From a bacterium ADurb.Bin243 (GTDB lineage: Bacteria > Muiribacteriota > UBA9980): 64,000 nt of DNA. The notes beneath the pieces were generated by a model, which saw nothing but the letters and a program-made list of their open reading frames with translations, made no database searches and was not told the origin of the DNA. Each line of letters starts with the position of its first letter. Position 1 is the first letter of the stretch. Shown in pieces: positions 11,705 through 53,343 of this stretch. The stretch spans positions 8,436-72,435 of the forward strand of contig MWBZ01000012.1 in NCBI GenBank assembly GCA_002069765.1, given 5' to 3'. Both the position numbers and the translations under genes were made by a program.

Positions 11705-11708
11705 AAGT

Positions 11709-13253
11709 TCAGCTCCTTTGATTGATAACTTTACCGTATTCATCGTGCTTGAATAATTTTTTGCGATACCCGAAACGCGACGCAAAGCTTTCGAACGCAT
11801 GTATCCATACGAGTTTTACGTAAGCGCGCTGGTTAAGGCGTAAAAATCTGTTGCGCGAAAACATTTTAAGGTAAAAATCGATATTCATATTAAAAAATTT
11901 AAAAAGCTCGAATTCATATACCCGGCGGGTGGTTTCGTAATCCATGTCCCCGGCCGGCATTATAACGTGCGCCTGGTCGTAAAGAGAGTAATCGGTTACA
12001 AAAATCTTTCCTTTTTCTTTCATTTCGTCAAAAAGGGGCGTGCCGGGGTAAGGCGTAAGCGGGCTCGGGCAGACAAAATCCGAATATCTGCCGAAATATT
12101 TAAGCCCCTCATGAAGCGTTTTTTGATTGTCGTATTGCGTTCCCCAGACGAGCATGGTCATTAGCAAAAGGCCGTTCGCTTTGATTATTTTCATGGCCCT
12201 ATCGATAATTTCCGGATCGGAGTAGGGTTTTTTCAAGTTTTTTAAAACGTCAGAAAACGGGGATTCGGCGCCTATCATAATTTCAAAGAGCCCGGCGCGT
12301 TTCAATACGGGCAAAATGTCCTGGTTTTTTATAACGCTTCCGCAGCAGGACTGTATGTGGAATTTGATCTTCATCTTCTTTTCGAATATAAGTTCGGCGA
12401 ATTCCAGCGCCCATTGCCTGTTATATAAAAAATCGGTGTCGCCGATAACAAAGATGTCGCGCCCGTATTTATTATAAAGCAGCTCGATAAGGCCCGCCGC
12501 ATAACCGGCCGAAGGCTTTCTCATGGTATAGTTCCATTCGTAAGCTTCGGAGCAGAACTTGCAGCGGTTCGAGCAGCCGCGGCTGAAAATAACCCCGAAA
12601 GCCCTGCTGCCGCCGAAAGTGGGCGAAGTATAGCGCTCCATCGGATACAGCTCATATGCCGGATACGGCGATTCGTCGAGGCTTTGAATAAGAGCCCTGT
12701 CCGGCGTGCTTAAAACGGCGTTTCCGTTCATAAAAGAAATTCCGTTAACCGCCCCGAGCGCTTCAGTCATGCGGCCTGTAATACATGTATTTTCGGCCAG
12801 CGACCTGCGCGGCGAAGCGTCGCGGCCTACGCTCGAAGCGAGTATCTCAGCCAGCTGCTTAACGGTAATTTCTCCTTCGCCCCTTACGGCTATATCGATA
12901 AGCCCTTCTTTTATATACTTTTCGTAAAAGACCGAAAAAATTATCCCGCCGCCGGCGATGATCGTGTCGGGCGAGAATTTGCGAATAATTTTAAGCTCGG
13001 CCGAAACTTCGTTGATCTGGCATGTATGAGTGCACGACACGCCTGCCAGATGAGGCCGGAACTCTTCGAGGACACGCTTTAGCTTTTCCCACGGCCGCTC
13101 TTCGATGCTCAAATCGAGGACCCTGAGATTGTAATTTTTCTTCAAACATGAAGCCAGTATAGAAAGCGCTGGCGAGGGTATCGTGCCGTTAAACCATAGC
13201 GACAGGTTTTCGGGAGCGTCGACGAGTAATATTTTAAATTCTTCAGAATTCAT
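11709..13253 (-). CDS. Cobalamin-binding-domain radical SAM protein, paralog C
   Basis: Motif RGCSNRCKFCSE; N-terminus FKILLVDAPENLSLWFNGTIPSPALSILAS. Its start codon overlaps the stop of paralog D (ATGA). Confidence 0.75.
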   Translation of the reverse strand: MNSEEFKILLVDAPENLSLWFNGTIPSPALSILASCLKKNYNLRVLDLSIEERPWEKLKRVLEEFRPHLAGVSCTHTCQINEVSAELKIIRKFSPDTIIAGGGIIFSVFYEKYIKEGLIDIAVRGEGEITVKQLAEILASSVGRDASPRRSLAENTCITGRMTEALGAVNGISFMNGNAVLSTPDRALIQSLDESPYPAYELYPMERYTSPTFGGSRAFGVIFSRGCSNRCKFCSEAYEWNYTMRKPSAGYAAGLIELLYNKYGRDIFVIGDTDFLYNRQWALEFAELIFEKKMKIKFHIQSCCGSVIKNQDILPVLKRAGLFEIMIGAESPFSDVLKNLKKPYSDPEIIDRAMKIIKANGLLLMTMLVWGTQYDNQKTLHEGLKYFGRYSDFVCPSPLTPYPGTPLFDEMKEKGKIFVTDYSLYDQAHVIMPAGDMDYETTRRVYEFELFKFFNMNIDFYLKMFSRNRFLRLNQRAYVKLVWIHAFESFASRFGYRKKLFKHDEYGKVINQRS

Positions 13254-14791
13254 CGGCCCCCGTCCTTCCAGGCTTCACCCATAACCGATTCGTAACCGGG
13301 CTGGTCGTAAAGCTTCTTATGATAGCGCACCGGATTCATAAAGCCTTCGAGCGCGTTCATCCAGATTAATTTAGTGAAGTGCCAGTAATTGATCCTTAAA
13401 AATCTGTTTTTTGAAAACAGTCCCATGTAATAAAACGGGTTTAAATTATAATGCCTCAAAAGCCCCATTTCGTATGTGAACCGCGTTTGCGCGTAACTCA
13501 TTCCGCCTGCGGGGGCTATTACGTGAGACTGGTCGTACACCGCCATATCTTCTACGTAAATTTTGCCTTTTTCCTTCATTTCTTCGTAAAGCGGAGTGCC
13601 GGGATATGGCGTGAGCACATTAGGGCAGGTTATGTCGGCGTATTTATCGAAGAATTTAAGCCCCTCACGGAGCGTTTCGGCGCTGTCGTACTCGGTGCCC
13701 CAGAACATCATGGCCATAAGTAAAACATCGTATTTTTTAACGATCTGCATGGCTTCGATCATGGTTTTTTGATTGAGGTGAAAACTTTTCAGCTTATTTA
13801 AGACGTTTTGAAACGGCGACTCCGTGCCGAGCATAATTTCAAAAAGCCCTATCTCTTTTAACTTCGGGACCAGCGATTCGTTGCGTATAATAGTGGTGCA
13901 CGCGGTCTGGATATGAAATTTTATCTTCACTTTTTTTTGCTTTATAATGTCTATAAATTCCTCGACCCACTCGCGGTTAAGTAAAAAATCAGTGTCGGCG
14001 AATATAAAAGTTGTGCGGGCGTAGTTATCGCGCAAAAGCTCTATGTGCCTTACCGCGTATTCGGGCGAATTGCGCCGCAGAGTATAATCCCATCCGAACG
14101 ACTCGGAGCAGAAACAGCATCTGTTTGCGCAGCCGCGGCCGAAAGTAATTCCGAAAGTTTCATTGCCTCCGTAGATGGGTATTTTATAGTGCCGCATAGG
14201 GAACATTTCGTATGAAGGAAACGGAATTTTATCCAGATTGTGAATATGCGCGCGGGTTTTAGTAACGTGAACCACGCCGTCGCAGATAAAAGCGAGGCCG
14301 TCGATAGCTTTTAATTCGGCGTATTTTTTTGATATGTCAACTGCATTCCCCGCCGCGGCCCTGTTTTTAAAAGAGCAAAGGCTGCGGGTGAGTTCGCTGA
14401 AAGTGAGCTCGCCCTCGCCGGTGGCTATAAAATCAACGAGGCCTTCTTCGAGATAGTCCTTATGGAAAACTTTAAAATGAACGCCGCCTCCGCACACCAG
14501 AGTTTTCGGCGAAAATTTACGAATCATCAAAAGAGCCGCGCGCACTTCGTTTACATGGCATGTGTGAGTGCACGGAATAGCGATCAGATCCGGCGCGAAA
14601 TCGCTCAGGCAGTTTTTTAAACTCTGCCATGGGGTTTTATCGACATTCAGATCCAGAACGCGCACGTCATAGAGCGTTTTAGTGTATGAAGCCAGTATCG
14701 CCAGAGCGGGCGACGGCAATGTGCCGTCGAACCATTTCCAGACCGATTGCGGGGCATCGAGCAATAATATTTTAAAATTTTTTTCGAGCAT
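13250..14791 (-). CDS. Cobalamin-binding-domain radical SAM protein, paralog D (first gene of the operon)
   Basis: Motif RGCANRCCFCSE; about 50% identical to paralog C over the N-terminal 100 aa by eye. Confidence 0.75.
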   Translation of the reverse strand: MLEKNFKILLLDAPQSVWKWFDGTLPSPALAILASYTKTLYDVRVLDLNVDKTPWQSLKNCLSDFAPDLIAIPCTHTCHVNEVRAALLMIRKFSPKTLVCGGGVHFKVFHKDYLEEGLVDFIATGEGELTFSELTRSLCSFKNRAAAGNAVDISKKYAELKAIDGLAFICDGVVHVTKTRAHIHNLDKIPFPSYEMFPMRHYKIPIYGGNETFGITFGRGCANRCCFCSESFGWDYTLRRNSPEYAVRHIELLRDNYARTTFIFADTDFLLNREWVEEFIDIIKQKKVKIKFHIQTACTTIIRNESLVPKLKEIGLFEIMLGTESPFQNVLNKLKSFHLNQKTMIEAMQIVKKYDVLLMAMMFWGTEYDSAETLREGLKFFDKYADITCPNVLTPYPGTPLYEEMKEKGKIYVEDMAVYDQSHVIAPAGGMSYAQTRFTYEMGLLRHYNLNPFYYMGLFSKNRFLRINYWHFTKLIWMNALEGFMNPVRYHKKLYDQPGYESVMGEAWKDGGR

Positions 14792-14963: not shown

Positions 14964-15428
14964 TCAGCGGACAGGCATATGGCTCATTAATCTCATTAGC
15001 GGCGGCGGATTGACTGGCGCGACCGGAACGAATTTTCGGGCGGCGTTTACGCAAAGCCGGTTATAAGGAATTCCGGAAAGGCTTTTTTCAGAGGAAGCCG
15101 AAACGATATATTTATTTTCTTTTTTTTCCACCAATAAATAATCGGCCCGTTTCGTGAAAGGGTCCGGATAAAGGTTTCTCAAATATCCTTTTTTTTGGGT
15201 TAATTCTGAAATCGAGGCCGGCCATTTTTTTTCTTCGAGGTTAAACCTTAAAAGCGCCATATTATATTCGAGCAGATATGATTTGAGCAGTTCTTCCTTT
15301 GCGCCCCTGACGGCCGTTTCTGAATTTAAAGCCAGCTTATGCGCCGTAACTGCCGCAATCATTACGAAGATAATGACGATTATAATAACTCCGCCGCGCC
15401 GGCTTTGAAATTTATCATAAATTTTCAT
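14964..15428 (-). CDS. Pseudopilin-like protein (GspK/minor pilin-like N-terminus RRGGVIIIVIIF)
   Basis: N-terminal hydrophobic segment after an RRGG motif; C-terminal motif SISELTQKKGYLRNLYPDPF shared with the three neighbouring pilins. Confidence 0.45.
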   Translation of the reverse strand: MKIYDKFQSRRGGVIIIVIIFVMIAAVTAHKLALNSETAVRGAKEELLKSYLLEYNMALLRFNLEEKKWPASISELTQKKGYLRNLYPDPFTKRADYLLVEKKENKYIVSASSEKSLSGIPYNRLCVNAARKFVPVAPVNPPPLMRLMSHMPVR

Positions 15429-15831
15429 ACTTTACCTTTTCGAGGCTCTCTCCGCGGGCGCCTGATTTGATATCATAAACGTCTTTTTTTTGCGTCGACG
15501 AAGGTATTATAATCCACGTGTCGTTTTTCTCGGTTACCGGATCGATCGGAAGGGCCGTGATATATTTTTTGTCCACCAGTTCCTGAAGGCTTTCCGGATA
15601 CCTTTCATGGTCCTTATAGAACCTGGATATGGTGTCGCGCACGCCGCGAAGGTTGCTTTTTAAAACGCTTTCCTTCGTTTTTCTGGCGCTCTCGCCGATC
15701 AAAGGCTGGCTCGCCGCGAATAAAATGCTTATGATTATTACGACGGCAAGCACTTCTATAAGCGTAAAGGCTTTGATTTTTCGTAAACCGTAAAATTTAT
15801 TTGCTTTAAGCGTACATGATGCAAAAGGCAT
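15415..15831 (-). CDS. Prepilin-type N-terminal cleavage/methylation domain protein (type IV pilin / T2SS pseudopilin)
   Basis: KAFTLIEVLAVVIIISIL class III signal peptide, with Ala rather than Gly at -1; C-terminal SLQELVDKKYITALPIDPVT. Confidence 0.75.
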   Translation of the reverse strand: MPFASCTLKANKFYGLRKIKAFTLIEVLAVVIIISILFAASQPLIGESARKTKESVLKSNLRGVRDTISRFYKDHERYPESLQELVDKKYITALPIDPVTEKNDTWIIIPSSTQKKDVYDIKSGARGESLEKVKYENL

Positions 15832-15884
15832 ACTATCTTCCCCGCTTTTTTTATTTTAACGCCGATATTTAAAAAACGGACTTC

Positions 15885-18800
15885 TTATAACCTGGCGTCC
15901 CTGACTATAATTTTTATCTTCTTCCATTCGAATTCGATTTCCTTGAAAATTTCAATAGCTTCCTTTATGTCGATTTTTTCGATCATTTCCAGCTCCGACG
16001 CGAGGCGCGCAAGCCTGTTAAAACACATGTTCAATGACGCGCCTTTAAGCGAGTGGGCGAGCTGCGAAATATTATGGGCGTCTTTGCGCTCTACCGCGTC
16101 CGCGAGCCCTGCCAGCGATTCGGCGAATTTATTCAAAGACATTTCCAGGAGCTTTTCAAACAATAACTTATCGTTATCCACTCTATGCATAAATTCATCG
16201 GCGTCAAAACTCGAGCATTGCTGAGCCTCCGCTTTTATTTTGCCGCCGGAAATATTTTCAGTCCCCGCGGCGAGATATTTTTCGAGGACCCGGCGAAGGT
16301 GCTCAGGGTTTATGGGTTTCGTTAAAAAATCGTTCATCCCTGCCGCAAGGCATCTTTCTTTTTCTTCTTTAAGCGCGCCGGCGGTCAGAGCTATTATAGG
16401 CACTCGCGCGGCGCCGGCGGCTTCTCCGGCTCGAATCTGCCTGGCGGCTTCTATTCCGTCCATTACCGGCATTTGAATATCCATTAATATAAAATCCGCG
16501 CGGCCGGTTCCCGCCGCTTCAACCACTTCTTTTCCGTTCTGTGTTTCGATGATTTCCGCCCCCGGGATATGCCTTTTTATCATCGTTTTAACCAGCAGCA
16601 TATTTATATGCGAATCCTCGGCCAGAATTATCAAAGGCGGCCTTTCCACGGCGGGAACTATTATCTTAGAAGATAAGTCGAGCTGCCTGTTGACGTATTC
16701 GTTAAAACCGGAACCGCTGTGAATATTTTTAAGATAATAAAACAGCTCGGCTGCTTTTACCGGCTTTACCAGATTGAAACGAACGCCGAGTTTTTTGCAT
16801 TTATCCGTGATATCCGGATCGTCTGACGAGCTGTGCAGTAGAATCACGGGTTGCCTTGCAGCCGATAAGTTTAATTTTTCACGGATCATGCTTATGGTAT
16901 CCAGGCCGTCGAGCTCCGGCATATGGTAGTCGACTATAATAACGTCAAAACGCTCCTGTGAAGATATGATTTCGAGCGCCTCGCGCCCTCCCGCGCAGCC
17001 GCAAAACTCGATGTTCCAGCTTTTAAGGGTGTGTTCGAGAATCAACCTGTTGTTGTCGTTATCATCGACCACGAGTATCCTTTTAACGTCTTCGATGCTT
17101 CTGACGTTTTGATTTTCGGCATATCCATATTCCGTTTCCAGCGAAAAAAAGAAAACGGACCCGCGCCCCGGCTCGCTTAAAAGCTCTATTTTTCCGCCCA
17201 TCTTTTCGATAAGAAGATTCGAAATTATAAGGCCAAGGCCGGTTCCGCCGTATTTTCTGGTAGTCGACGTGTCGGCCTGCGTGAAAGCCTTGAAAAGCTT
17301 AGCCTTCTGCTCTTCGCTTATGCCGATGCCGGTGTCGCGCACTTCAAAAAAATATCTGCCTTTCCTGTCGTCTATTTTGCTGAACCGCAGCTTGATTTCG
17401 ATTTCGCCGCTATCGGTGAATTTTACGGCGTTACTTAAAAGATTGACCAGCACCTGCTTTAAGCGGACCGGATCCACGGCCGCAAAATTAGGCGTATCGG
17501 GATGTATATTTATCAAAAGCTCGAGGTTCTTTTTAGACGCCTGAAATTTAATAATATCCGAAGCGGTTTCGACAAGCTCCGTTATATCGGTCTTTATGGT
17601 TTCGAGCTCGATGCGGCCGGCTTCGATCTTTGAAAAATCGAGTATATCGTTAATAATTCCGAGAAGCGATTGCGCTGAAATATTTGCATTTTCGACGAAC
17701 TGGCGCTGGACCGAGGTTAAATCGGTGTTTTTAAGAAGGTCGGTAAACCCGATCACCCCGTTTAAGGGCGTGCGTATTTCGTGGCTCATATTCGCCAGAA
17801 ACTCGGATTTGGCACGGTTTGCGGCTTCGGCATGTTCCGCGAGCTCCTGCGCGTGGCTCATCGCTTCCTGCAGGCGGCGGTTCGCTTCCAGCAGCTGGCG
17901 CTCGTAAAGCTTGCGTTCCGTTATGTCGCGGGTAACGCCGTGATAACCGGTCAGCAGTCCGGTTTTATCGCGGTACGCTACAACGGTGATCTCTGTCCAC
18001 ACCCAGCTTCCGTCTTTGCATTTTTGCTCCAGCTCATAACGCAGAGGGCCGGTTTTCACGCCGCGCCGCTCGTCTTCAAGGCGCCCGGCGTTGGCTTTTT
18101 TAATATGTTCGACGCCTTCGGGCTTTAACATCGACCATAGCTCTGTGCCGATGACTTCTTCCTTGCCGTAGCCACGCATGCGTTCGTCCGCGGGGCTTAT
18201 ATAAGTAAAACGGCAGGCGCTATCCATATGCCAGATAACGTCGCTCGAATTTTCGGCCATGATCCTGAATTTTTCTTCACTTTCGCGCCTCGCGTCTTCG
18301 CTGGTTTTCAATTCGAAATATTTCCACACGGCGTCCATCAATAAAGTAAGCTGCAATATATCGGCTTCGTCATATTCGCTTTCTTTGTTGGCTACTCCGA
18401 CTACCGCCACTACGGCGTCATCGCGGAAAATCGGCACGGTCAAAAAACGCCTGAGCTCGACATGGCCTTCAGGGTAGCCTTTTTTCAAAGGATGGGGGGC
18501 GCCGAAATCGTTTAAAACGATCGCCTTGCGCTGGCGGACGGCTTCGCCCCATACGCCGGTTTTGTCCAGAGCGTAAACGGTCTGCGGATCGACGACGGTG
18601 CATTCTTTCATAACGTCTCTGGACCAACTGTTTAAAATGAACTGCTTGGTGTCCTCTTTGTAATAATAAATATAGCCGATTTTGCTTCCGGTAATCGCGA
18701 TAGCCTCGTTGAGGGCGTTGTCCAGATATTGCTGGTTGCTTTCACCCCTGAAATGCATTATATTCAAAACACTTCTGAGGCGCTCCACGTTGCGGGCGTC

Positions 18801-18908
18801 TCCGCTTCCGGCGGAATTTTTCGGCGCCCCGGCCTTACCGCGGGAAGCGTTTGAAATATTATTTTTTTTCGTAATTTCTTTCACCATAATCGGATCCTCG
18901 CGCGGCAT
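15885..18908 (-). CDS. Hybrid sensor histidine kinase/response regulator (GAF, PAS, HisKA, HATPase_c, two receiver domains, HPt)
   Basis: 1007 aa; H-box FLANMSHEIRTPLNGVIGF; two REC domains (ILVVDDNDNNRLIL... and PLIILAEDSHINMLL...DIQMPVMDG); C-terminal HPt (AHSLKGASLNMCFNRL). Confidence 0.85.
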   Translation of the reverse strand: MPREDPIMVKEITKKNNISNASRGKAGAPKNSAGSGDARNVERLRSVLNIMHFRGESNQQYLDNALNEAIAITGSKIGYIYYYKEDTKQFILNSWSRDVMKECTVVDPQTVYALDKTGVWGEAVRQRKAIVLNDFGAPHPLKKGYPEGHVELRRFLTVPIFRDDAVVAVVGVANKESEYDEADILQLTLLMDAVWKYFELKTSEDARRESEEKFRIMAENSSDVIWHMDSACRFTYISPADERMRGYGKEEVIGTELWSMLKPEGVEHIKKANAGRLEDERRGVKTGPLRYELEQKCKDGSWVWTEITVVAYRDKTGLLTGYHGVTRDITERKLYERQLLEANRRLQEAMSHAQELAEHAEAANRAKSEFLANMSHEIRTPLNGVIGFTDLLKNTDLTSVQRQFVENANISAQSLLGIINDILDFSKIEAGRIELETIKTDITELVETASDIIKFQASKKNLELLINIHPDTPNFAAVDPVRLKQVLVNLLSNAVKFTDSGEIEIKLRFSKIDDRKGRYFFEVRDTGIGISEEQKAKLFKAFTQADTSTTRKYGGTGLGLIISNLLIEKMGGKIELLSEPGRGSVFFFSLETEYGYAENQNVRSIEDVKRILVVDDNDNNRLILEHTLKSWNIEFCGCAGGREALEIISSQERFDVIIVDYHMPELDGLDTISMIREKLNLSAARQPVILLHSSSDDPDITDKCKKLGVRFNLVKPVKAAELFYYLKNIHSGSGFNEYVNRQLDLSSKIIVPAVERPPLIILAEDSHINMLLVKTMIKRHIPGAEIIETQNGKEVVEAAGTGRADFILMDIQMPVMDGIEAARQIRAGEAAGAARVPIIALTAGALKEEKERCLAAGMNDFLTKPINPEHLRRVLEKYLAAGTENISGGKIKAEAQQCSSFDADEFMHRVDNDKLLFEKLLEMSLNKFAESLAGLADAVERKDAHNISQLAHSLKGASLNMCFNRLARLASELEMIEKIDIKEAIEIFKEIEFEWKKIKIIVRDARL

Positions 18909-18920
18909 GGCCGCCCTATC

Positions 18921-19376
18921 CTACCAGCTTGAATAAAGCGTGTTATCGAGCGCCGCGCCCCGGGCCCTCGATTTTATGTCGAAGACTTTTTTATCGGTTT
19001 CGGATATTAAAATTATCTCCCAGCTCGCCTCTGCCGAAACGGGGTCGAGCGGAATGGAACGCAGGTATTTTTTCTCGACCAGCTCTTCGAGCGACGAAGG
19101 AAACCTGTTTTCATGGCGCAGCCCGGGCTCGGCCGCGAGCCGGTCCAGATAATAACGGTCGATCGCGCTTCGCACCGTGTTAAGAGCCCCGCGGAGACTT
19201 TCTTCCTTTTCTTTTTTCACGCTATACTCAAAACCCTGTACCACGGCCATTGCTAAAACGGAAAGAAAAACCGTTACCGTAAGGATTTCGACAAGCGTAA
19301 ACGCCCGCCGCCCGGCCTTTTGAAGAATTATTCTTTTTTTTAACCCGCGTCCGCTGAATTTCATGCGCGCCTTCAT
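18921..19376 (-). CDS. Prepilin-type pseudopilin
   Basis: RRAFTLVEILTVTVFLSVLA signal peptide with Ala at -1; C-terminal FPSSLEELVEKKYLRSIPLDPVS. Confidence 0.7.
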   Translation of the reverse strand: MKARMKFSGRGLKKRIILQKAGRRAFTLVEILTVTVFLSVLAMAVVQGFEYSVKKEKEESLRGALNTVRSAIDRYYLDRLAAEPGLRHENRFPSSLEELVEKKYLRSIPLDPVSAEASWEIILISETDKKVFDIKSRARGAALDNTLYSSW

Positions 19377-19443
19377 TCGTTTTCGCTTACAAATATTTTA
19401 AACCGCCCCGGTAAAAATCACTTATAATTTTTAAATTTTATTT

Positions 19444-19836
19444 TCAGTATTTTTCATAGCTGACGCCTTTAATATCGGTTCCCGCGGGCGGCGAGCCGTT
19501 TTTTCCGCGCAGGAATACCGAGCCGTTTGCGGCGTCGTAGCCGATATCGCCGGAAGCGTTGGCTGCGTCCCATTTTAAATACGCGTTCTTAAGCTGCGCG
19601 CCTTCCATGGCCGATATGCTCGGCGGAAAGCGGCCGTTTTCAATGTAATAGCGGCCGATCGCGCCCCTCAGTATGGAAAGATTATTTTTAACGGCCGCGT
19701 CTTTTGCAAGCCCGGCGCGCGAAGAAACGTTTATAACGGCTATCGACGACAGCATGGAAATTATCGCGATAACCGCCAGAAGCTCGATGAGCGAAAAACC
19801 CTTCAAGCTTTTTTTATTATGAGCGAAAATCCTCAT
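19444..19836 (-). CDS. Major pseudopilin / type IV pilin (GspG-like)
   Basis: Canonical KGFSLIELLAVIAIISML prepilin peptidase site (G at -1, E at +5). Confidence 0.8.
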   Translation of the reverse strand: MRIFAHNKKSLKGFSLIELLAVIAIISMLSSIAVINVSSRAGLAKDAAVKNNLSILRGAIGRYYIENGRFPPSISAMEGAQLKNAYLKWDAANASGDIGYDAANGSVFLRGKNGSPPAGTDIKGVSYEKY

Positions 19837-20396
19837 AAATTGCCCTCGATCAAATCTCTTATTTTAAAAGCGCTGAACGGTATGTAAAAATCGAAAGCAA
19901 TATCGGCTTTCTTTTCGTCCAGCTCGTTCATGGATATCATTTTGGGCGCCAGATGAAATTTAGCCCTGGCGCTTTCTATAAAATTTAAAAATGCTGAGGC
20001 GGCGACGGAACGGAACCCTGCTTTCACTTCGAGCGCTTCGATGAAATAGATTTTTTTTAACGAATACTCGGCGCTGAAGTGTTCGCAGCCGGTTTCCTTT
20101 GCCAGAGTGGCTATAAGCCCCTGAATGAGCTCGACATCTTTTGCCGCGAAACTGCTTTTAAAGTAATTTTTAAAATAAAGCGCGCCCGATTTGAAATCGT
20201 CCTTTTCCTTGCGCAGCGCGGCGCATGATTTAGCGGCCAGCGCGTTTTTCTCTTCGAGTTCGCTTATAAGCGGCATAAGCGCAGCCGCGCTGCCCTGCGG
20301 CGAAACGGTCAGCACGTGCAAGAATCCCGCGAATATAAGCGCCATAGAGCTTATTATAGCTATATTAAACAGCCTGGACCTTTCTTTTTCATTCAA
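19833..20396 (-). CDS. PilO/GspM-like pilus assembly protein (tentative)
   Basis: 187 aa; single N-terminal TM, coiled-coil, then a periplasmic domain; positioned between pilN-like and pilin genes. Confidence 0.35.
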   Translation of the reverse strand: MNEKERSRLFNIAIISSMALIFAGFLHVLTVSPQGSAAALMPLISELEEKNALAAKSCAALRKEKDDFKSGALYFKNYFKSSFAAKDVELIQGLIATLAKETGCEHFSAEYSLKKIYFIEALEVKAGFRSVAASAFLNFIESARAKFHLAPKMISMNELDEKKADIAFDFYIPFSAFKIRDLIEGNL

Positions 20397-21060
20397 AAAG
20401 CTCAGCCTCCTTAAGAGTTATTATAATATAAGCGCTAACCCCGCCGGCCGAAGCTTTGAGCGACGAAACGAAAATCTGCCCTATCCAGCGGCAGGCTTTC
20501 AGATTATCTACCAGCCTCAAATAAGTGTCTTTAGCGGCGCAGTTCATTTGAAACTCCATTTTCTTCGTAGAAAAATCTATCTTTATATTGCCTATTTTCA
20601 CTTCGCCGCCGAATTCGCCGGCGTTTTTAAAAAGGCTTTCCATTATGGCCCGTTCGCTCGTTTTAGTTTTTTTCAGGCTTTGCGCCACGGCTTCTTCGAA
20701 TTTTAAAGTTTTTTCCTTGAGCTCCGGCGTGAAAGAAATTTCGAGCGTATCGGAAAAAGGCGTTTCTCCGTCGTAAAAAAAGCCTTTTTTAACCATGGTT
20801 TCGAAAGTATCGAAATCGTTTATCACTACCCTGGTGTTTTTCAGCTCGCGTTCTCTGGAGGCGAGCCGGTCCTGCAATTCGGTTATCCTTTCGTTCGCCT
20901 TCGTGTAAGCCGACGAATAAGAAAAATAGCAGTATGCTATATATGCAATATATAATAAAGGCAGCGATATGATGACCGCCCTGGCTATTATAAAGCTGCG
21001 GGAGTATTTCAGCGCCGAATCGCGTTCGACGAAAAAATTCATGTTTATTTTTTTATCCAT
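20389..21060 (-). CDS. PilN/GspL-like pilus assembly protein (tentative)
   Basis: 223 aa; N-terminal TM (IIARAVIISLPLLYIAYIAY) followed by coiled coil; lies directly downstream of pilM with an 8-nt overlap. Confidence 0.4.
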   Translation of the reverse strand: MDKKINMNFFVERDSALKYSRSFIIARAVIISLPLLYIAYIAYCYFSYSSAYTKANERITELQDRLASRERELKNTRVVINDFDTFETMVKKGFFYDGETPFSDTLEISFTPELKEKTLKFEEAVAQSLKKTKTSERAIMESLFKNAGEFGGEVKIGNIKIDFSTKKMEFQMNCAAKDTYLRLVDNLKACRWIGQIFVSSLKASAGGVSAYIIITLKEAELFE

Positions 21061-22081
21061 GAAGCTGGCGCTCCTTCATTGCGTATAGCGGCAAATATTG
21101 TATTTTATCCCTATCGGACGCATAAACGGCTTCGAGCGAAAGAAAGTTCGACAGGAAAAAATCGAGCCCGCCGTTTTTGCATAGGCCGCCGCTCAAAAAA
21201 GCCTTTGAAATCCTTATCTGCGGAAATTTAGAGGCGAAAAATTCGAACGTGAGGTGTATTTCTTTTAAAAAATTGTCCATCACGGGCGATTTCTTACTTT
21301 CAAAAGCTTCCAGTATCGAAACATCCGCTTTATCGGGGAAGAGTTTAACCGACATCAAATCCATGGTGTTTTTCTCTTTTTGTTTTATGCCTGCGTCGAA
21401 GGCTTCAGGAGTTTCGGCGGAATTAATTTCCTTCGCGGCGGAAGGTTTTAACTCGTTTTCAAAATGTCTGCCGGCCGTTTCTATTATTCTGACGTAAACC
21501 GGCTGATAATTTTTGAAAAAATATACCGTGCACACTTCATAGCCGATATTTAATAACGCGAAATCTTCGACCAGCATGCCGGCGGATGAAAGATAATTGT
21601 AAACGGCATGGCTGGAAAGCTCGATAGAGTTAATAATGATTCCGTTCTCCGCGAAAATATCGGTGATTTTATTTAATATCTCATATTTTACAAGGCAGAG
21701 ATATGCGCTGATATGCTGCTTTTTATCGTCGCCGGTTTCAATAGAAGTTATATGTGCGTCTATTTTGGCGCCGGCGTAAACTTCTTCTCTTATCTGATCT
21801 TTCGAGCGCCATATCACATAATCTTTATTAACGTCGGCCTGCGGCTCGTCGTTTACGATTTTGACGAAAAGCTGGCGTGCCCACTGGTCGGGCAGAACCA
21901 GGTCGCATTCGGAGATCCGGGCTTCTTTTTTAACGCGCTCGAGCGTATGCGACAATTTTTTCGCGTCGGCGAAAGGAAGCGTAAAAGTGCCGCCAACGCA
22001 ATTTACCGGCAGGACGAAATCGTATGCCTTATTTTTTTTCAGCGCCTTGACGCTGTATCCGCCTATATCTATAACAGCCAC
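21053..22081 (-). CDS. pilM: Type IV pilus assembly protein PilM (actin-like ATPase fold)
   Basis: 342 aa; N-terminal AVIDIGGYSVKAL phosphate-1-like motif of the actin/FtsA fold; operon context pilM-N-O. Confidence 0.65.
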   Translation of the reverse strand: MAVIDIGGYSVKALKKNKAYDFVLPVNCVGGTFTLPFADAKKLSHTLERVKKEARISECDLVLPDQWARQLFVKIVNDEPQADVNKDYVIWRSKDQIREEVYAGAKIDAHITSIETGDDKKQHISAYLCLVKYEILNKITDIFAENGIIINSIELSSHAVYNYLSSAGMLVEDFALLNIGYEVCTVYFFKNYQPVYVRIIETAGRHFENELKPSAAKEINSAETPEAFDAGIKQKEKNTMDLMSVKLFPDKADVSILEAFESKKSPVMDNFLKEIHLTFEFFASKFPQIRISKAFLSGGLCKNGGLDFFLSNFLSLEAVYASDRDKIQYLPLYAMKERQLHG

Positions 22082-22174
22082 TTATGCACCCGCTTTTTAA
22101 ATTAATTTCTTTATTTTGCCGGCCGCGTAAGCCGGCCGCAGATCATCTTTTAATATCGTTTTTATTCGCGCCGA

Positions 22175-24043
22175 TCAGTCTTCGAAAGTCATGCGGTTGA
22201 TTTCGTCGATAGTGCTTATACCTTCTATAACCCTCTGCCACGCGGACTGACGAAGCGTGGTCATGCCTTCGGCGACCGCCTGCTTTCTTATATCGAGCGG
22301 CGACGCTTTTAAAATAATCATATTTTTAATGCAATCCGAAAGCGGCATGGTTTCATAAATGCCCGTACGGCCTGAATAGCCGGTGTTATGGCAGAAACGG
22401 CAGCCTTCGCCCTTATAGAATTTATGGTCTTTATAGCGTTCGAAATCGCCCATCAGCTTGACCGTTTCCTCGTCGGGAATATATTCGCGCCGGCAGCTGG
22501 AGCATATTTTGCGTATAAGCCTCTGCGACATTATCAGATTGAACGACGCGGCGAACTGATAAGGGTCCACGCCCATATTGACGAGCCGCCCTATGGCGTC
22601 TATTACGTTATTGGCGTGGATCGTGGAAAGCACGAGGTGCCCCGTGAGGGCCGCATTGATAGCTATATTCGCCGTTTCGAAGTCGCGGATTTCGCCGACC
22701 ATTATTTCGTCGGGGTCCTGACGCACTATCGAACGAAGGCCCGAGGCGAAAGTGAGCCCCTTTTTTTCGTTGACGTTAATCTGCACGATATCGGGTATCT
22801 GATATTCCACCGGGTCTTCGATAGTTATGAACTTGTCTTCCGGGGTTTTGATGGCCTTTATGGCTGAATAAAGCGTCGTAGTCTTCCCGGAGCCGGTGGG
22901 GCCGGCTACGAGTATCATGCCGTAAGGCTTGAATATATTTTTTTTGAATCTTATAAGGTCGTGCTCGGGAAATCCGAGCCTTGCAAGGTCGAGCCCGAGA
23001 GCGTTCTGGTCGAGGACCCTTATTACGACCGTTTCGCCGAAAACCGATGGAAGCACCGACACGCGAAAATCTATGGCGCGGTCGTCTATATAGCGTTTGA
23101 AACGGCCGTCCTGAGGTATGCGTTTTTCGGAAATATCGAGGCTCGCCATATTTTTAAGGCGCGATATTATGAAATTTTTCGATTTTACGTCTATGGTTTT
23201 AACGACATAAAGCGCGCCGTCTATGCGGTATTTGACTTTAAGCCCTTCGGGGTAAACCTCGAAATGTATGTCGGAGGCTTTTTTGCGAATGGCCTTGAGT
23301 ATTATCGAATCGACCGTCTTTACTATGGACGAATCGGACATCGTCTTTAAAAATTCCGCGTCGGCAGCCGCGTCGTCGGCTTCTTCGCTGACCGCCCTGA
23401 GCGCGGGAGTATCGTCGGTATCGGCAAAGAGGGTATTTTCGCTCAACGAAGTTTCGATCATCAGATTGATTATGCGGGCGATATCGCTTTTTACAGAAAC
23501 GTAGGCCAGCGTTGGAATGCCGATAACGGATTCGATTTCTTCTATTCGCTCGACGTCGGACGGGTCGTCTATGACGATTACGAGCTTTTCGCCTTTCATG
23601 GCGTAAGGTATGAACTGGTAGCGCCTTATTATATTCACGTCGAATTTTGAAAAAAGCGCGTCGTCGATCTTCGTTTCGTTTAAATCGACGAATTCCGAAT
23701 TATGCTGGACGGCGATGGCCCTGTAAACGGCCGCCGGATATACGATTCCGCGCTCTATCAAAAGGTCTTTCAAGTTTCCGGGAACTGCGCCGAATTCGTT
23801 TATAATCCGCTCGAGCTCGGAAGCGGCGAGCCTGCCTTCGGATATCAGCACGTCTTCGAGCGAACGGGCCTTCAGCGAAGAAAAATAAAATTTATAAGCA
23901 GCCTGCTCGTTTTCAATAACTTTAAGCTTTATAAGCTCCTTAACGCCTTCGGAAAAATTCTTCGACGCCAGCGTCTCCAGAGCGGCTTTATCTATGCGGT
24001 TCCTGTTTTTAAGTTCGTATAAAATTTTTTCCCACACGGCCAT
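22175..24043 (-). CDS. Type II secretion / type IV pilus assembly ATPase (GspE/PilB family)
   Basis: Walker A GPTGSGKTT, Asp box, His box, tetracysteine CSSC...CRFC, N-terminal GSPII_E_N-like domain. The ORF extends to 24088, but the ATG at 24043 is preceded by AAGGAGAA. Confidence 0.9.
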   Translation of the reverse strand: MAVWEKILYELKNRNRIDKAALETLASKNFSEGVKELIKLKVIENEQAAYKFYFSSLKARSLEDVLISEGRLAASELERIINEFGAVPGNLKDLLIERGIVYPAAVYRAIAVQHNSEFVDLNETKIDDALFSKFDVNIIRRYQFIPYAMKGEKLVIVIDDPSDVERIEEIESVIGIPTLAYVSVKSDIARIINLMIETSLSENTLFADTDDTPALRAVSEEADDAAADAEFLKTMSDSSIVKTVDSIILKAIRKKASDIHFEVYPEGLKVKYRIDGALYVVKTIDVKSKNFIISRLKNMASLDISEKRIPQDGRFKRYIDDRAIDFRVSVLPSVFGETVVIRVLDQNALGLDLARLGFPEHDLIRFKKNIFKPYGMILVAGPTGSGKTTTLYSAIKAIKTPEDKFITIEDPVEYQIPDIVQINVNEKKGLTFASGLRSIVRQDPDEIMVGEIRDFETANIAINAALTGHLVLSTIHANNVIDAIGRLVNMGVDPYQFAASFNLIMSQRLIRKICSSCRREYIPDEETVKLMGDFERYKDHKFYKGEGCRFCHNTGYSGRTGIYETMPLSDCIKNMIILKASPLDIRKQAVAEGMTTLRQSAWQRVIEGISTIDEINRMTFED

Positions 24044-24104
24044 TTTATAATTCTCCTTTACCTTCCGGCCGGCGCGCCGGGCCCGCAAAACTTTCGCGGT
24101 TAAA

Positions 24105-25331
24105 TCAGCTTACTATGGTGGCCGCCGTTATCATGGGCAGCAGTATCGCTATAATAATCGTTCCGAAAACGGCCAGGACGAATATGAGTATCAGCGGCCC
24201 GAAAAGCGATTCGAACGCCGTAGTGAGAGAGTCCAGTTCTTCGTCCATAGTGTTGGAAATATTATTAAAAATCTCAGAAAGCGTGCCCGACTCTTCGCCC
24301 GTTTTAATTAATTTCGGTATTATATCCGAAGCGAAACCGCTTTTTTCGAAAGAAAAACTTATGGTATTGCCTTCGCGTATGAGCCTTACCGCCTCTTTGA
24401 TCTTAGCGTTAATCACGCCGTTGGTCACCACATTAGAACTGACTTCCAGTGCGTTTACTATATTAATGCCTGATTTTATGAGCAATCCGCTGGTCCTGTA
24501 AAAAATCGAATAAAGGCTTTTTTCCACGAACGACCTGATGAGCGGAATTTTCAGGGAATACTTATCGCTGAAGCATTTGCCTTCTTCGGTATTCAGCCAG
24601 TTATAAAGCATGAACGCGAAAGCGGCCGCGAGAAAGCCGAGCGGCAGATAAAACCCGCCGACGAAATCGCCTATGAAAAAAACGACCTGCGATATAGGCG
24701 GAAGCGAAGCCCCCATTTCACGGAACATCTTGGTATATGTAGGCACTACGTTTAAAAAGAGATACGATACGCCGATAGTGCTTAAAACAAGTATGACCGC
24801 GGGATAAGTCGCCGCCGCTATCAATTTTTTGTAAAGCGCCTGTTTTTTCTGGTAATACTCGCTTAAATTGGACAGCACGCCGCAAAGGTTGCCTGAAGTT
24901 TCGCCGCTGGCGACCGTTTTAACGTATAAATCTTCGAAGACGTCGGGGCGCCTGGCAAGCGCGAGTGAAAAAGAAATGCCGTGATCAACGGAATTTTTAA
25001 CGCCGCAGATAATTTCGGTAAAGTAATCCTGCGCGGAACGTTTTTCGGAAAGGACGGCGAGCGCCTCGTTCAGCGACATGCCTGATTTTATAAGCATGGC
25101 GAGCACTCTGGAAAATTCTATAAGGTATTTGGTGCGGTTGAATAAAAACCTTATTTTTCTTAAATTTTCAGCGCTGAAATACGCTCCGAAATCGAACGGC
25201 ATTTTTTCGATTTCGAGAGGAAACATTTCCTGCCGTTTAAGAAGCTCGCTTACGGCTTCGGCCGAGCGGGCGTTGATAACGAGCGATTCCGTCCTGCCCG
25301 TTTTGGTGGAGGCTTTTACTTTAAAATCCAT
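24105..25331 (-). CDS. Type II secretion system protein F / PilC platform protein
   Basis: 408 aa; two T2SSF repeats and three TM segments; adjacent to the GspE/PilB ATPase. Confidence 0.85.
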   Translation of the reverse strand: MDFKVKASTKTGRTESLVINARSAEAVSELLKRQEMFPLEIEKMPFDFGAYFSAENLRKIRFLFNRTKYLIEFSRVLAMLIKSGMSLNEALAVLSEKRSAQDYFTEIICGVKNSVDHGISFSLALARRPDVFEDLYVKTVASGETSGNLCGVLSNLSEYYQKKQALYKKLIAAATYPAVILVLSTIGVSYLFLNVVPTYTKMFREMGASLPPISQVVFFIGDFVGGFYLPLGFLAAAFAFMLYNWLNTEEGKCFSDKYSLKIPLIRSFVEKSLYSIFYRTSGLLIKSGINIVNALEVSSNVVTNGVINAKIKEAVRLIREGNTISFSFEKSGFASDIIPKLIKTGEESGTLSEIFNNISNTMDEELDSLTTAFESLFGPLILIFVLAVFGTIIIAILLPMITAATIVS

Positions 25332-25427
25332 TTTTCAAATTATCTTTCACATAAGAAGGTTTTCATATTTAAACTTCATTATATTAAATTTAAAAATTTT
25401 TTTCAAGTAAACGCCGAAAATAAAAAT

Positions 25428-26000
25428 CTATTTTTCGGCTTTGATAGCGTAATGGTAAGGATATATATCGTACGAAGAACTTATTTTTTTAAACTTAAGG
25501 GATTTGAGCTCTCCCGCGATATGATCGGCGCCTACGCGCTCGTATAAAGGCGGCCCCTGTGGAGTAGCTTCCGCTTTCCAGTCGATTATGAGAATAATGC
25601 CGCCTTTTTTAAGTATCCTGCGGGCTTCCTGAAGGAACAACCGCTGATCGGCCAGTTCGTGATAAACGTTTATAAGATAAACCACGTCGGCGAAATTATC
25701 GCGCAAAAGCGTATCGTTTTCCTCGGACTTAACGCAAAGCACGTTGGTTATTCCGTTAGCTTCGGCGTTTTCCTTGAATTTCTGGATCATTTCAAAACTG
25801 ATATCGACGCCTACGATTTTCGCTTTTCTATATTTTTTAGCCAGGGCCACCGCAAAATAGCCTGTCCCCACGCCGAGCTCGACGGCCGTTTTAGAGTCGA
25901 GACCGCCGAATACGGTGGAAAGCAAGTCGGGATCCTGCCACTTTATGCGTTCCGGATCGTTTAATTTATGAGCTTTTTTTTCATCGAACTTAATGCCCAT
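25428..26000 (-). CDS. Class I SAM-dependent methyltransferase
   Basis: Motif I VELGVGTGYFAVALA. The start is trimmed to the ATG at 26000, preceded by AGAGGAGATAAG; the ORF track extends to 26075. Confidence 0.8.
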   Translation of the reverse strand: MGIKFDEKKAHKLNDPERIKWQDPDLLSTVFGGLDSKTAVELGVGTGYFAVALAKKYRKAKIVGVDISFEMIQKFKENAEANGITNVLCVKSEENDTLLRDNFADVVYLINVYHELADQRLFLQEARRILKKGGIILIIDWKAEATPQGPPLYERVGADHIAGELKSLKFKKISSSYDIYPYHYAIKAEK

Positions 26001-26026
26001 CTTATCTCCTCTTTTATTTATTCGCG

Positions 26027-27241
26027 TCAAGCCCCGAACATGAAAGCCAGCGCCAGGTGTATGCGGGCGCGCCATGCGGCTTCGTTGTGCTGCGCGTCTT
26101 TGAATTCACGGTACTTATAACTTTTGAACTGCGGGTAATTTTTTCGTATCTCGCCGTCGAGTATGCGCGAAGAGCGGAGCGCCGTACGGCCCTCCAGCAG
26201 GCCCATATCCATCCAGAGCCTGTTGCGGGAGTTATCGAAGCCTTTAGACATCGCCCATGGAATTATGGAGTAATTGTCCCAGTAAAGGGCTGGAGAAATC
26301 ACCAGCATGCCGCCGAAGACTTCCGGATATTCGAGCCCCATGTAAAGCGATATGAGGCCGCCGAGCGAAGAGCCGCCTACGGCCGTATTGGAAGGATCCG
26401 TTAGCGTGCGGAATTTTTCGTCGATGAAAGGCTTTAGCTCTTCCACTACAAAGCGGGAATAATCTTCGCCCAGGCCGCCGCCGCCGCGTTTTTCGTCGCG
26501 CATCGGCGCGTATTCGTCGAGCCGCGCTTCGGTATTGTAAATTCCGACGACTATAATTTCCTTCATTTTTTTAGTTTTGACCAGCCGGTCTATAGCTTCG
26601 TCCACTCCCCAATCGACCCCCTGGAAAGAAAGCCTGGCGTCGAAAAGGTTGTTACCGTCGTGCATATATAATACCGGATAGCGCTTTTCACGGTTTTCTT
26701 TAGAAGAATAACCTTCGGGCATCCATACGATAACGTCGCGCTTAAGCTGAAGGTATTTAGATTCGACGTTTTTATAAAGCTTGTAATCGCCGATTAAATT
26801 CAGCTTATAGCTGTGGACCGCGGCGTCTTTTGGGAGCATATCCTTCCACGCTTCCACTTCGCATTCGAGGCGGCATTTAACGATGCTCTGGCCGCCTGTT
26901 TCAAGGCTTATGAACCTGTTAGGAATATCGAAGCCTTCGAATGACTTTTCTATTTTTTTAAAATCGCCCCTGGTAAATTTGAACTCGATGCTTTTGGCTT
27001 TAGGGAGATAGGCGTTAAATTCGTATGTATACGGCGCAATTTTGGTCATGAGCGCGCCCGCCGATTTCCAGTTTCCAAGAAGCCTGTGATTGCCGCTTAT
27101 AAAAACCCTGTCCTTTTCGGGAGTGGTTTTGGGCACGGTAACTATTACCTGCAAATTGAAGTTATCCACTTCACCGAAGGCCGGCTTTGCAAAAAATATG
27201 AGAACGGCGAAAGTTGAAAGGAAAAAGATTGACAACAGCAT
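26027..27241 (-). CDS. Secreted esterase (alpha/beta hydrolase, putative-esterase/enterochelin-esterase-like family) with N-terminal beta-sandwich domain
   Basis: Signal peptide; GGSSLGG nucleophile elbow; LYMHDG motif; N-terminal about 100-aa Ig/CBM-like domain. Confidence 0.7.
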   Translation of the reverse strand: MLLSIFFLSTFAVLIFFAKPAFGEVDNFNLQVIVTVPKTTPEKDRVFISGNHRLLGNWKSAGALMTKIAPYTYEFNAYLPKAKSIEFKFTRGDFKKIEKSFEGFDIPNRFISLETGGQSIVKCRLECEVEAWKDMLPKDAAVHSYKLNLIGDYKLYKNVESKYLQLKRDVIVWMPEGYSSKENREKRYPVLYMHDGNNLFDARLSFQGVDWGVDEAIDRLVKTKKMKEIIVVGIYNTEARLDEYAPMRDEKRGGGGLGEDYSRFVVEELKPFIDEKFRTLTDPSNTAVGGSSLGGLISLYMGLEYPEVFGGMLVISPALYWDNYSIIPWAMSKGFDNSRNRLWMDMGLLEGRTALRSSRILDGEIRKNYPQFKSYKYREFKDAQHNEAAWRARIHLALAFMFGA

Positions 27242-44516: not shown

Positions 44517-44525
44517 AACAAAAAT

Positions 44526-44555
44526 ATTATAACACAACGAACGTTTTATTTACAA
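44526..44555 (-). promoter_or_regulatory. Putative promoter TTGTAA-N18-TATAAT (minus strand) ending 9 nt before the queE ATG
   Basis: Reverse complement of 44550-44555 is TTGTAA and of 44526-44531 is TATAAT; there is no Shine-Dalgarno sequence between the -10 element and the ATG. Confidence 0.35.
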
Positions 44556-53335: not shown

Positions 53336-53343
53336 GCGGTTCC

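Follow-up and report, generated by a model that had tools for sequence, protein, structure and literature searches.

A putative type IV filament operon of Candidatus Wallbacteria with GspG-like pilins and an optional hybrid histidine kinase between its pilin genes

What machine is encoded by a ten-gene locus that combines a pilus-type motor, four pilin genes and, between two of these, a gene for a hybrid histidine kinase, and does the kinase belong to that machine? The locus lies in a 64,000-nucleotide stretch of contig MWBZ01000012.1 (the window; positions are counted from its first letter), where a first-pass annotation had described it as a type IV pilus-like or type II secretion system (T2SS)-like locus. 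Ten open reading frames (ORFs) run head to tail on the minus strand from 25331 to 14964, in the order PilC/GspF, PilB/GspE, PilM-like, PilN-like, PilO/GspM-like, pilin A, pilin B, hybrid kinase, pilin C and pilin D (Table 1), and all ten were recovered in the order and at the coordinates that the first-pass annotation had given. Judged from its sequence, the locus is a type IV filament system that lies outside the tested defining features of the type IVa pilus (T4aP), the T2SS and the monoderm Com pilus, and shares features with each of them. Most of the features that had seemed odd are usual in this protein family, and the kinase is an ancient, optional addition, since deleted in sister lineages.

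The database names of close homologues identified the host as an uncultured member of Candidatus Wallbacteria, and genes identical to those of the window were also found in anaerobic-digester metagenomes. Wallbacteria carry homologues of OmpM, an outer-membrane tether, and have for this reason been placed in the diderm Terrabacteria (bioRxiv 10.1101/2021.05.31.446380). The window was compared with the Wallbacteria loci L007/L008, L009/L010, L011/L012, L013/L014 and L015, which together with the window represent six lineages, and with the short contig L027. Beyond the window, the scan was extended along contig JAKJHQ010000015.1 (metagenome-assembled genome (MAG) GCA_022703765.1, 88,644 bp), in which window position 1 corresponds to record position 9277. 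The order of the operon genes, the kinase aside, is kept in all six lineages.

Intergenic spacing ranges from a 14-bp overlap to a 93-bp gap. The best sigma-70-like promoter of the region is located 47 bp upstream of the platform gene, the first of the series; it is the only strong site in the operon region and probably represents the operon promoter. The kinase gene starts 12 bp past the pilin B stop codon and ends 53 bp before pilin C. No promoter-like or terminator-like site was found in these two gaps, and their hairpins were no more stable than those of shuffled sequence (z -1.06 and -0.45). We read the region as a single operon because the spacing is short, a strong promoter-like site precedes the first gene alone, and the gaps flanking the kinase contain neither a terminator-like site nor a significant hairpin. 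As proposed earlier, the kinase may plausibly be transcribed together with the pilin genes, and no separate promoter and terminator isolating the kinase were observed.

The first two genes encode the platform protein and the assembly ATPase, and both identities given by the first-pass annotation were confirmed by their T2SSF and T2SSE matches (Table 1). The platform protein, here called GspF1, is 75–84% identical in the five other Wallbacteria lineages and scores 265 bits against the GspF model TIGR02120, below its cutoff of 424. For the ATPase, gene callers place the start at the ATG at 24043, giving 622 aa; in this numbering the Walker A motif (GPTGSGKT) is at position 381 and the tetracysteine motif comprises CSSC at 514 and CRFC at 548. 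Its best NCBIfam model is PilB TIGR02538 (585 bits, cutoff 675.65), followed by GspE TIGR02533 (519 bits), both below cutoff. The best solved relative is the Geobacter T4aP PilB (5zfr, 436 bits), which aligns over the full length, as do the Myxococcus T4aP PilB and Thermus PilF, and GspE aligns over the C-terminal two thirds. The PilM-like protein is soluble, with no transmembrane segment (maximum hydropathy 1.17), and its gene is separate from the next one. Its PilM_2 match is weak (score 26.6, cutoff 27). A scan of 185,579 species genomes with the PilM-like profile recovered five Wallbacteria MAGs and one weak N-terminal match in Eubacterium, and revealed no related system in a characterised organism.

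The earlier labels "PilN-like" and "PilO-like" stand in part. They are favored by topology, by a low-confidence fold match and by weak GspM matches in relatives; the two window proteins themselves have no Pfam match, and sequence-profile searches of both against the PDB yielded nothing meaningful. In the PilN-like protein, a conserved N-terminal cytoplasmic peptide, in which I5, M7, F9, V11 and E12 are invariant, precedes a single transmembrane segment, a coiled coil and an alpha-beta-beta-alpha-beta-beta domain. Its AF2 model is of low confidence (pLDDT 52), and the top Foldseek PDB matches of this model are the periplasmic domains of XcpY, EpsL, PulL, PilO and PilN (TM 0.75–0.78 relative to the target, E 6e-3 to 3e-1). 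Relatives of the PilN-like protein form six protein clusters in all, apparently restricted to Wallbacteria. Among 1.84 billion cluster representatives, the PilO-like protein has five relatives of 187–190 aa and one weak partial match; three of the eight members of its family show weak T2SSM (GspM) matches, the best with E 0.0028.

The signal sequences of the pilins were examined across the lineages. Pilin A has Gly at position -1 and Glu5 in six of six lineages. Pilins B and C have the strings RRAFTLVE and KAFTLIE, with Ala in the -1 position, as the first-pass annotation had read them, and this Ala is conserved in all nine Wallbacteria orthologues of pilin B and in pilin C of all six lineages. 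It had been taken for an anomaly, a view that does not hold: by definition, a class III signal peptide terminates in either Gly or Ala, and in Streptococcus sanguinis ComC processes all five ComG pilins, each of which has Ala -1 (PMC7212644, PMC3244431). Within the 44-member pilin family, 30 sequences have Gly at -1 and 14 have Ala. From this conservation and these precedents, Ala -1 in pilins B and C is an ordinary variant.

A C-terminal motif had been reported as common to all four pilins. It is exact in pilin B (SLEELVEKKYLRSIPLDP) and pilin C (SLQELVDKKYITALPIDP) and approximate in pilin D (SISELTQKKGYLRNLYPDP), whereas pilin A, whose head domain is divergent, keeps the first half (FPPSISAM) and lacks the KKYL..P.DP part. 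Searches with pilin B recovered the nine Wallbacteria orthologues and, at greater distance, about 35 homologues bearing the names of Sideroxyarcus, Cupriavidus, Nitrospirillum, Burkholderiales, Omnitrophota and Terriglobia. The motif, written as (R/K)(F/Y)P.SLEELVEKKYLR..P.DP.T, is the most conserved stretch of the whole family alignment and is shared by homologues of Proteobacteria, Omnitrophota and Terriglobia. The best PDB match of the family profile is GspG (5wda, E 1.8e-13), and the alignment spans the stretch YP..L..LV...YLR.LP.DP. The AF2 model of pilin B (pLDDT 87.7) shows a long N-terminal helix and a small head. Against an alignment of non-Wallbacteria sequences only, hhalign matched pilin A with 99% probability over residues 7–78 alone, and pilin D with 97% probability (E 4e-11) over its head domain, residues 38–124.

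The four paralogues of the window are 20–40% identical pairwise, and each has its own orthologue in all six lineages; pilin B is 48% identical to a homologue outside the Wallbacteria orthologue group, more than to any paralogue in the window. Because the paralogues are this distant, their orthologues occur in all six lineages and the motif crosses phyla, the alignments identify the motif as a signature of the GspG family and the duplications as old. The recent duplication that had been proposed from the shared motif is ruled out by the pairwise identities together with the occurrence of the motif in several phyla.

Pilin D, whose start overlaps pilin C by 14 bp, lacks both Phe+1 and Glu5 in every lineage and has no N_methyl or T2SSK/GspK match in Pfam or NCBIfam. 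It had been called GspK-like. GspK is defined by the T2SSK domain (PF03934), a length of about 300 aa or more, a large alpha-domain insertion and the lack of Glu5, of which pilin D shares the last alone; with half the size of GspK and a GspG-like head it is no GspK homologue, and the label may serve only as an analogy to a subunit at the tip or with a priming role. GspK lacks Glu5. By analogy with GspK and with ComGG, pilin D is a candidate tip or priming subunit; ComGG has a non-canonical signal and likewise lacks Glu5 (PMC7212644).

A Pfam scan of the ~39 large ORFs of the window detected no Secretin, Peptidase_A24 or second T2SSE/PilT, in agreement with the earlier remark that the window holds no secretin, prepilin peptidase or retraction ATPase. 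None of the three was found on ~82 kb of the 88.6-kb contig (record positions 178–82015 of 88644), or beside the locus in the five other Wallbacteria lineages, and no PilP or PilQ gene follows the PilO-like gene in any of the six. Type IV filament loci commonly lack a secretin, peptidase and PilT of their own. One prepilin peptidase often serves several systems, and no MSH locus has one; secretins have repeatedly been lost, and about a tenth of type IV filament systems fall in no named class and are termed "generic" (PMC6668835). T4aP genes are frequently scattered over the genome, and among T4aP modules pilMNOPQ clusters most consistently (PMC6060248).

A second, orphan PilC/GspF platform gene (GspF2) is located at 33657–34886 on the minus strand and was overlooked in the first reading. 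GspF2 is 27% identical to GspF1 and closer to canonical GspF/PilC (368 vs 265 bits to TIGR02120). It has no adjoining ATPase or pilin gene, being flanked by genes for an FHA-GAF-adenylate/guanylate cyclase (34926–36587, minus strand) and for a 266-aa protein that matches no family and shows an HD-like motif (32770–33570, minus strand). GspF2 suggests that another type IV filament system with dispersed genes exists in this genome, which could supply shared parts. A search of the ORFs without Pfam matches for a divergent prepilin peptidase yielded no recognisable one: the 266-aa protein beside GspF2 looks HD-like, and a 402-aa protein with about seven transmembrane segments matches no Pfam or NCBIfam model.

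The "generic" class of the type IV filament superfamily is described as a cluster that encodes an extension ATPase, an inner-membrane platform and one or more pilins whose signal peptide is of class III (Denise et al. 2019, PMC6668835), and the locus has the ATPase, the platform and N_methyl matches in three pilins. It resembles the T4aP of Geobacter, Myxococcus and Thermus in the full-length PilB alignment with its tetracysteine motif, in the PilC-family platform, and in a separate cytoplasmic PilM followed by two bitopic coiled-coil proteins with ferredoxin-like periplasmic domains, the PilN- and PilO-like likeness being weak. Unlike T4aP, the locus and the scanned contig lack PilP/PilQ, PilT and PilD, the pilins are of GspG type, the ATPase and platform score below cutoff, and the PilN- and PilO-like proteins have no detectable sequence relatives beyond Wallbacteria-like sequences. 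With the T2SS it shares GspG as the best family for the four pilins, whose motif aligns to the GspG stretch YP...L.ALV...GY(I/L)R.LP.DPWG of 5wda, a single ATPase without a retraction ATPase, and a last pilin that lacks Glu5, as GspK does. The pilins nevertheless score 15–38 bits against GspG TIGR01710 (cutoff 88.85), have smaller head domains and match none of PF08334 (T2SSG), T2SSI, T2SSJ and T2SSK, and the locus has no GspH/I/J/K, GspC, GspD or fused GspL. As read from the profiles, homology of the pilins to GspG is clear at the superfamily level.

The Com pilus of monoderm Bacilli (ComGA, ComGB, ComGC-GG, ComC) is similar in having several small Ala -1 pilins and a last pilin, ComGG, without Glu5 (PMC7212644). 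It also has no retraction ATPase or secretin and a peptidase encoded apart, and pilin C scores equally against ComGC and GspG. The locus differs from it in having PilM/N/O-like genes, which are absent from Com (PMC3244431), in belonging to a phylum reported as diderm, in sub-cutoff scores against ComGA (268 vs 300) and ComGB (104 vs 240), and in having no ComEA/ComEC nearby. A further comparison is offered by a Cupriavidus basilensis locus (L016, CP062804.1) with the order GspG-GspF-GspE-(4 accessory)-secretin-pilin. Its pilin P0024 is 36% identical to pilin B, has the same C-terminal motif and adjoins GspE/GspF and a weakly PilN-like protein. Unlike the window, this locus carries a secretin gene (811 aa) that separates the accessory genes from the pilins, encodes a canonical GspG with a T2SSG domain, and has no embedded kinase. 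The Cupriavidus secretin indicates that diderm relatives of this pilin family use a secretin, and none is present at the Wallbacteria locus in any lineage.

The hybrid kinase described within the pilin genes was borne out by its Pfam domains and by its position. It comprises GAF (residues 59–195), PAS (214–333), HisKA (366–431, His376), HATPase_c (479–591), REC1 (~615–735, Asp660), REC2 (760–875, Asp810) and HPt (920–975, His952) domains, so that a single chain holds the HisKA His, HATPase_c, receiver Asp and HPt His of the hybrid/unorthodox kinase class (BarA/ArcB/TorS-like phosphorelay). The best NCBIfam match is BarA (481 bits, cutoff 890), which indicates the architecture class and not an orthologue. 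No transmembrane segment was found in the kinase (maximum 19-residue hydropathy 1.59), and no regulator with an output domain is encoded in the operon. Pilin is reportedly sensed by PilS through its membrane domain; because the kinase has no transmembrane segment, it cannot touch membrane-embedded pilins as PilS does, and the suggestion that it might sense via the fibre is not sustained.

In a wider sense the kinase has precedents. The single T4aP cluster of M. xanthus contains pilR1S1 and pilR2S2, and that of C. fuscus lacks pilR2S2 (PMC6060248); here too, a sensor kinase gene lies inside a pilus cluster and is variably present among relatives. It differs from PilS–PilR, a polytopic membrane sensor with an adjacent NtrC-family regulator, in being a soluble hybrid with two receivers and an HPt domain, in having no adjacent NtrC-type regulator and in standing between pilin genes. 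A soluble hybrid kinase at this place is thus a variation on known pilus-cluster kinases. Both Ala -1 pilins and kinase genes in pilus clusters are already known, and the current view of pilin processing and pilus regulation is unchanged.

At its N-terminus, the kinase of the window lacks a ~106-aa domain that is found in the 1113-aa orthologues (L011:10513-13854 and L014:10483-13824) and has a short low-complexity stretch instead; by this comparison the sensor end is evolutionarily plastic. The GAF module of the kinase recurs, with 51% identity over 275 residues, in a GAF-PAS-GGDEF diguanylate cyclase from another metagenome (L028:22-1488), implying that the same sensor module is coupled to different outputs.

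The kinase is present in the window and in L011/L012 and L013/L014, between pilins B and C, and in L027, where a partial kinase directly follows pilin B and the contig ends inside it, so that only the pilin B flank is seen; it is absent from L007/L008, L009/L010 and L015. The placement inside the pilin block pointed out at the start is thereby kept at the exact site in four lineages. Among 5.8 billion proteins, full-length orthologues were found only in L011/L012 and L013/L014 (1338 and 1329 bits, next match 886), and a metagenome scan with the sensor region recovered only same-site copies and unrelated GAF/PAS proteins. The window and L011 kinases are 61% identical, in line with the neighbouring proteins (PilM 67%, PilN-like 52%, pilin B 67%). 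The dN/dS ratio between the L011 and L014 kinases is 0.13, and His376, Asp660, Asp810 and His952 are intact and conserved in the orthologues; these values indicate purifying selection.

A neighbor-joining tree of 2228 concatenated positions grouped the window with L007, and L009 with L011 and L014, each with a 100% bootstrap value. The kinase-bearing taxa are therefore non-monophyletic, since the window pairs with kinase-less L007, and L011 and L014 pair with kinase-less L009. In L009/L010, the 3' end of the kinase ORF (20 to ~48 nt, stop codon included) survives as a deletion scar between pilins B and C, and no convincing kinase remnant was found in the corresponding gaps of L007 and L015. 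A recent, species-specific insertion is ruled out by the shared site in L011–L014 and L027, by the non-monophyly and by the L009 scar. From the tree and the scar, the ancestor of most sampled lineages had the kinase, which selection has maintained in some lineages and at least two deletions have removed from others. These deletions point to an accessory regulator rather than a structural component.

Taken together, we read the region as one operon encoding a lineage-specific machine of Candidatus Wallbacteria, a type IV filament system that would build a pseudopilus-type fibre, with the kinase as an accessory phosphorelay regulator, and we put the chances of this composite, mechanism and kinase role included, slightly above even. 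The prepilins would insert in the inner membrane, and a PilD-type peptidase encoded elsewhere, probably shared with another system, would cleave pilin A after Gly -1 and pilins B and C after Ala -1. The Glu5-less pilin D may prime or cap the fibre. Through the platform and the PilMNO-like stator, the ATPase would polymerise GspG-like subunits into a short fibre of pseudopilus type that is not retracted and would resemble a T2SS or Com fibre rather than a twitching pilus; should it cross the outer membrane, it would use a secretin encoded elsewhere. The cytoplasmic GAF-PAS kinase, which has a complete His-Asp-His relay, most likely senses an intracellular cue and hands phosphate via HPt to an unlinked response regulator, and this relay would couple some response of the cell to filament-operon expression or act back on the operon.

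Several points weigh against this reading. The PilN- and PilO-like assignments are weak (pLDDT 52; E 1e-3 to 1e-1), and the pilin B model matches EpsG and PulG, its sole noteworthy pilin-type matches in Foldseek, non-significantly (E 2–3). The ATPase lies below the curated PilB and GspE cutoffs, and its per-residue scores are about equal for PilB, GspE and ComGA. A pseudopilus was preferred to a pilus from the type of the pilins and from a lack of PilT on ~82 kb of a single contig. Promoter-like hexamers also occur within the operon, for example at 19888–19861 upstream of pilin A, which makes its reading as one transcript no more than plausible. The response regulator partner and the target that the kinase most likely has are putative, and two independent losses show that the machine can do without the kinase.

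In one rival reading, a generic hybrid kinase of GAF-PAS type came to lie between two pilin genes in an ancestor and is now a passenger, read through from the pilus promoter and unrelated in function to the filament. The at least two losses (L007/L008 and L009/L010), which left the rest of the operon intact, speak for it, as do the lack of a transmembrane segment or an adjacent response regulator, the plastic sensor end with its ~106-aa domain present in L011 and L014 and missing from the window copy, the 51% identity of the GAF module to that of a GAF-PAS-GGDEF protein, and nearest non-orthologous relatives that are generic PAS kinases of Bacteroidales, Methanolobus and Desulfobacterales. A passenger would, however, hardly be expected to keep its exact site in four lineages whose kinase sequences differ by ~39%, to remain under purifying selection with catalytic residues intact, to have no orthologue found at any other site, and to maintain tight spacing after pilin B (12 bp in the window; otherwise 20–33 bp). 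We consider this reading unlikely, though a serious contender. Another view of the kinase carries the first-pass annotation further: PilS-like direct sensing of the fibre or the pilin pool, combined with recent duplication of the pilins and perhaps unprocessed Ala -1 pilins. It drew on the position of the kinase inside the pilin block and on the motif common to the pilins, and it is barely credible, given a kinase with no transmembrane segment, paralogues of 20–40% identity with orthologues in six lineages, a motif that crosses phyla and occurs in GspG, and an accepted, here conserved, residue at -1.

The machine itself might also be the core of an ordinary retractile T4aP, with PilT, PilQ/PilP and PilD encoded elsewhere. 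In favor of such a core, the top NCBIfam model is the type IV-A PilB, the best solved relatives (Geobacter and Myxococcus PilB and Thermus PilF) align over the full length, and the PilM gene is separate from the PilN-like gene, as in T4aP and unlike the fused GspL. Dispersed T4aP genes are, moreover, common (PMC6060248, PMC6668835). Against it, the pilins are short (130–154 aa) and best matched by GspG and ComGC, not by T4a major pilins, PilP/PilQ do not follow the PilO-like gene in six lineages although pilMNOPQ is the most consistently clustered module, PilT was not found on ~82 kb of the contig, and the ATPase and platform fall under the T4aP equivalog cutoffs. On balance an ordinary T4aP core appears improbable, somewhat more so than a passenger kinase. 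More far-reaching, and very improbable in our judgement, would be a distinct filament family of diderm Terrabacteria, intermediate between T4aP/T2SS and monoderm Com, with its assembly state coupled to a kinase phosphorelay in some lineages. Such a family would join a PilMNO-type stator to Com-like traits (small Ala -1 pilins, a Glu5-less terminal pilin, and no retraction ATPase or dedicated secretin), and contact of the kinase with, for example, PilM or the ATPase would make the locus a filament-linked signalling module, beyond a mere regulated pilus.

If the preferred reading of an accessory-regulated pseudopilus-type operon is true, the locus is a documented type IV filament operon from a poorly known candidate phylum of diderm Terrabacteria. 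It would join a T4aP-style motor and stator with GspG-style pilins bearing Com-style signals, without a dedicated secretin, peptidase or retraction ATPase. Closely related lineages with and without the embedded phosphorelay kinase, one of them with a deletion scar, amount to a natural experiment on the same operon, and digester metatranscriptomes could show what the kinase contributes.

Table 1 Features of the filament operon in the window (coordinates in window positions).
Feature	Position	Strand	Basis
PilC/GspF-family inner-membrane platform, "GspF1", 408 aa, divergent copy	24105..25331	-	PF00482 T2SSF E 4.7e-49
PilB/GspE-family assembly ATPase, 637 aa from TTG	22175..24088	-	T2SSE E 3.3e-130; MshEN (N-terminal) E 2e-14
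PilM-type actin-like cytoplasmic protein, 342 aa	21053..22081	-	PilM_2 E 3.7e-6; FtsA E 2.4e-4; TIGR01175 pilM E 1.1e-9
PilN/GspL-periplasmic-domain-like bitopic protein, 223 aa	20389..21060	-	topology and low-confidence fold match
PilO/GspM-like bitopic protein, 187 aa from TTG, one transmembrane segment and coiled coil	19833..20396	-	inferred
Pilin A, 130 aa, class III signal KG|FSLIE	19444..19836	-	N_methyl E 6.3e-7; GspG TIGR01710 E 1.9e-9
Pilin B, 151 aa, GspG-like, signal RRA|FTLVE	18921..19376	-	prepilin signal; full C-terminal motif
Soluble hybrid histidine kinase, 1007 aa	15885..18908	-	GAF-PAS-HisKA-HATPase_c-REC-REC-HPt (Pfam)
Pilin C, 138 aa, GspG-like, signal KA|FTLIE, full C-terminal motif	15415..15831	-	N_methyl E 5.9e-6; GspG E 2.2e-8; ComGC E 3.4e-8
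Pilin D, 154 aa, GspG-like head (WPASISELTQKKGYLRNLYPDPFT), non-canonical N-terminus RRGG|VIIIV	14964..15428	-	hhalign head match
Best sigma-70-like promoter of the region (TTGAAA-17-TATAAT, 11/12)	25378..25406	-	consensus match

The flanks of the operon were also surveyed. A gene for a class I SAM-dependent methyltransferase (25428–26075, minus strand) directly precedes the platform gene in five of the six lineages and is absent in L015; the gap between the two genes is 9 bp in L011 and L013 and 96 bp in the window, where it holds the promoter-like site. Carbohydrate-active genes surround the locus (26027–27241, 36601–40614 and 40601–42754, all minus strand). A signal-peptide esterase with a CBM20 starch-binding domain is encoded two genes upstream of the operon and conserved in all lineages, and genes for an isoamylase and for a protein of 1337 aa that carries CHB_HEX_C and Fn3_assoc repeats also lie nearby. 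In L009, a 1411-aa protein of carbohydrate-active type (L009:11380-15615) is encoded right after pilin D. Such proteins could be substrates if the machine is T2SS-like; adjacency is a weak argument, since the whole region is collinear between genomes.

Downstream of pilin D, four tandem paralogous genes for B12-binding radical SAM proteins (8685–14791, minus strand) have their own promoter-like site at 14877–14848, and their best sub-threshold matches are BchE, HpnR and HpnJ. They directly follow pilin D wherever the locus extends so far, with both gene sets complete in L007/L008, and in L009 the 1411-aa gene stands between them and pilin D on the opposite strand. After the four genes comes that of the 402-aa protein mentioned above (7428–8636, minus strand), which has about seven hydrophobic stretches and matches no family. 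Downstream of these radical SAM genes, another hybrid kinase (HAMP-HisKA-HATPase-REC), unrelated to the first, and an adjoining solute-binding protein are encoded on the minus strand at 3684–6023 and 6035–7318; at the place of this kinase, just a 59-aa receiver fragment was called in L008. The contig is unusually rich in radical SAM genes: beyond the four in tandem, others (43815–44537, 52097–54546, 59441–60886 and L019:16033-19938) include two adjacent UPF0004/MiaB-like paralogues, another B12-binding member and a 1301-aa protein just outside the window. A 1113-aa UvrD/PcrA-type helicase (44741–48082, plus strand) carries an intein (Intein_splicing, residues 359–605) between its helicase N- and C-terminal domains.

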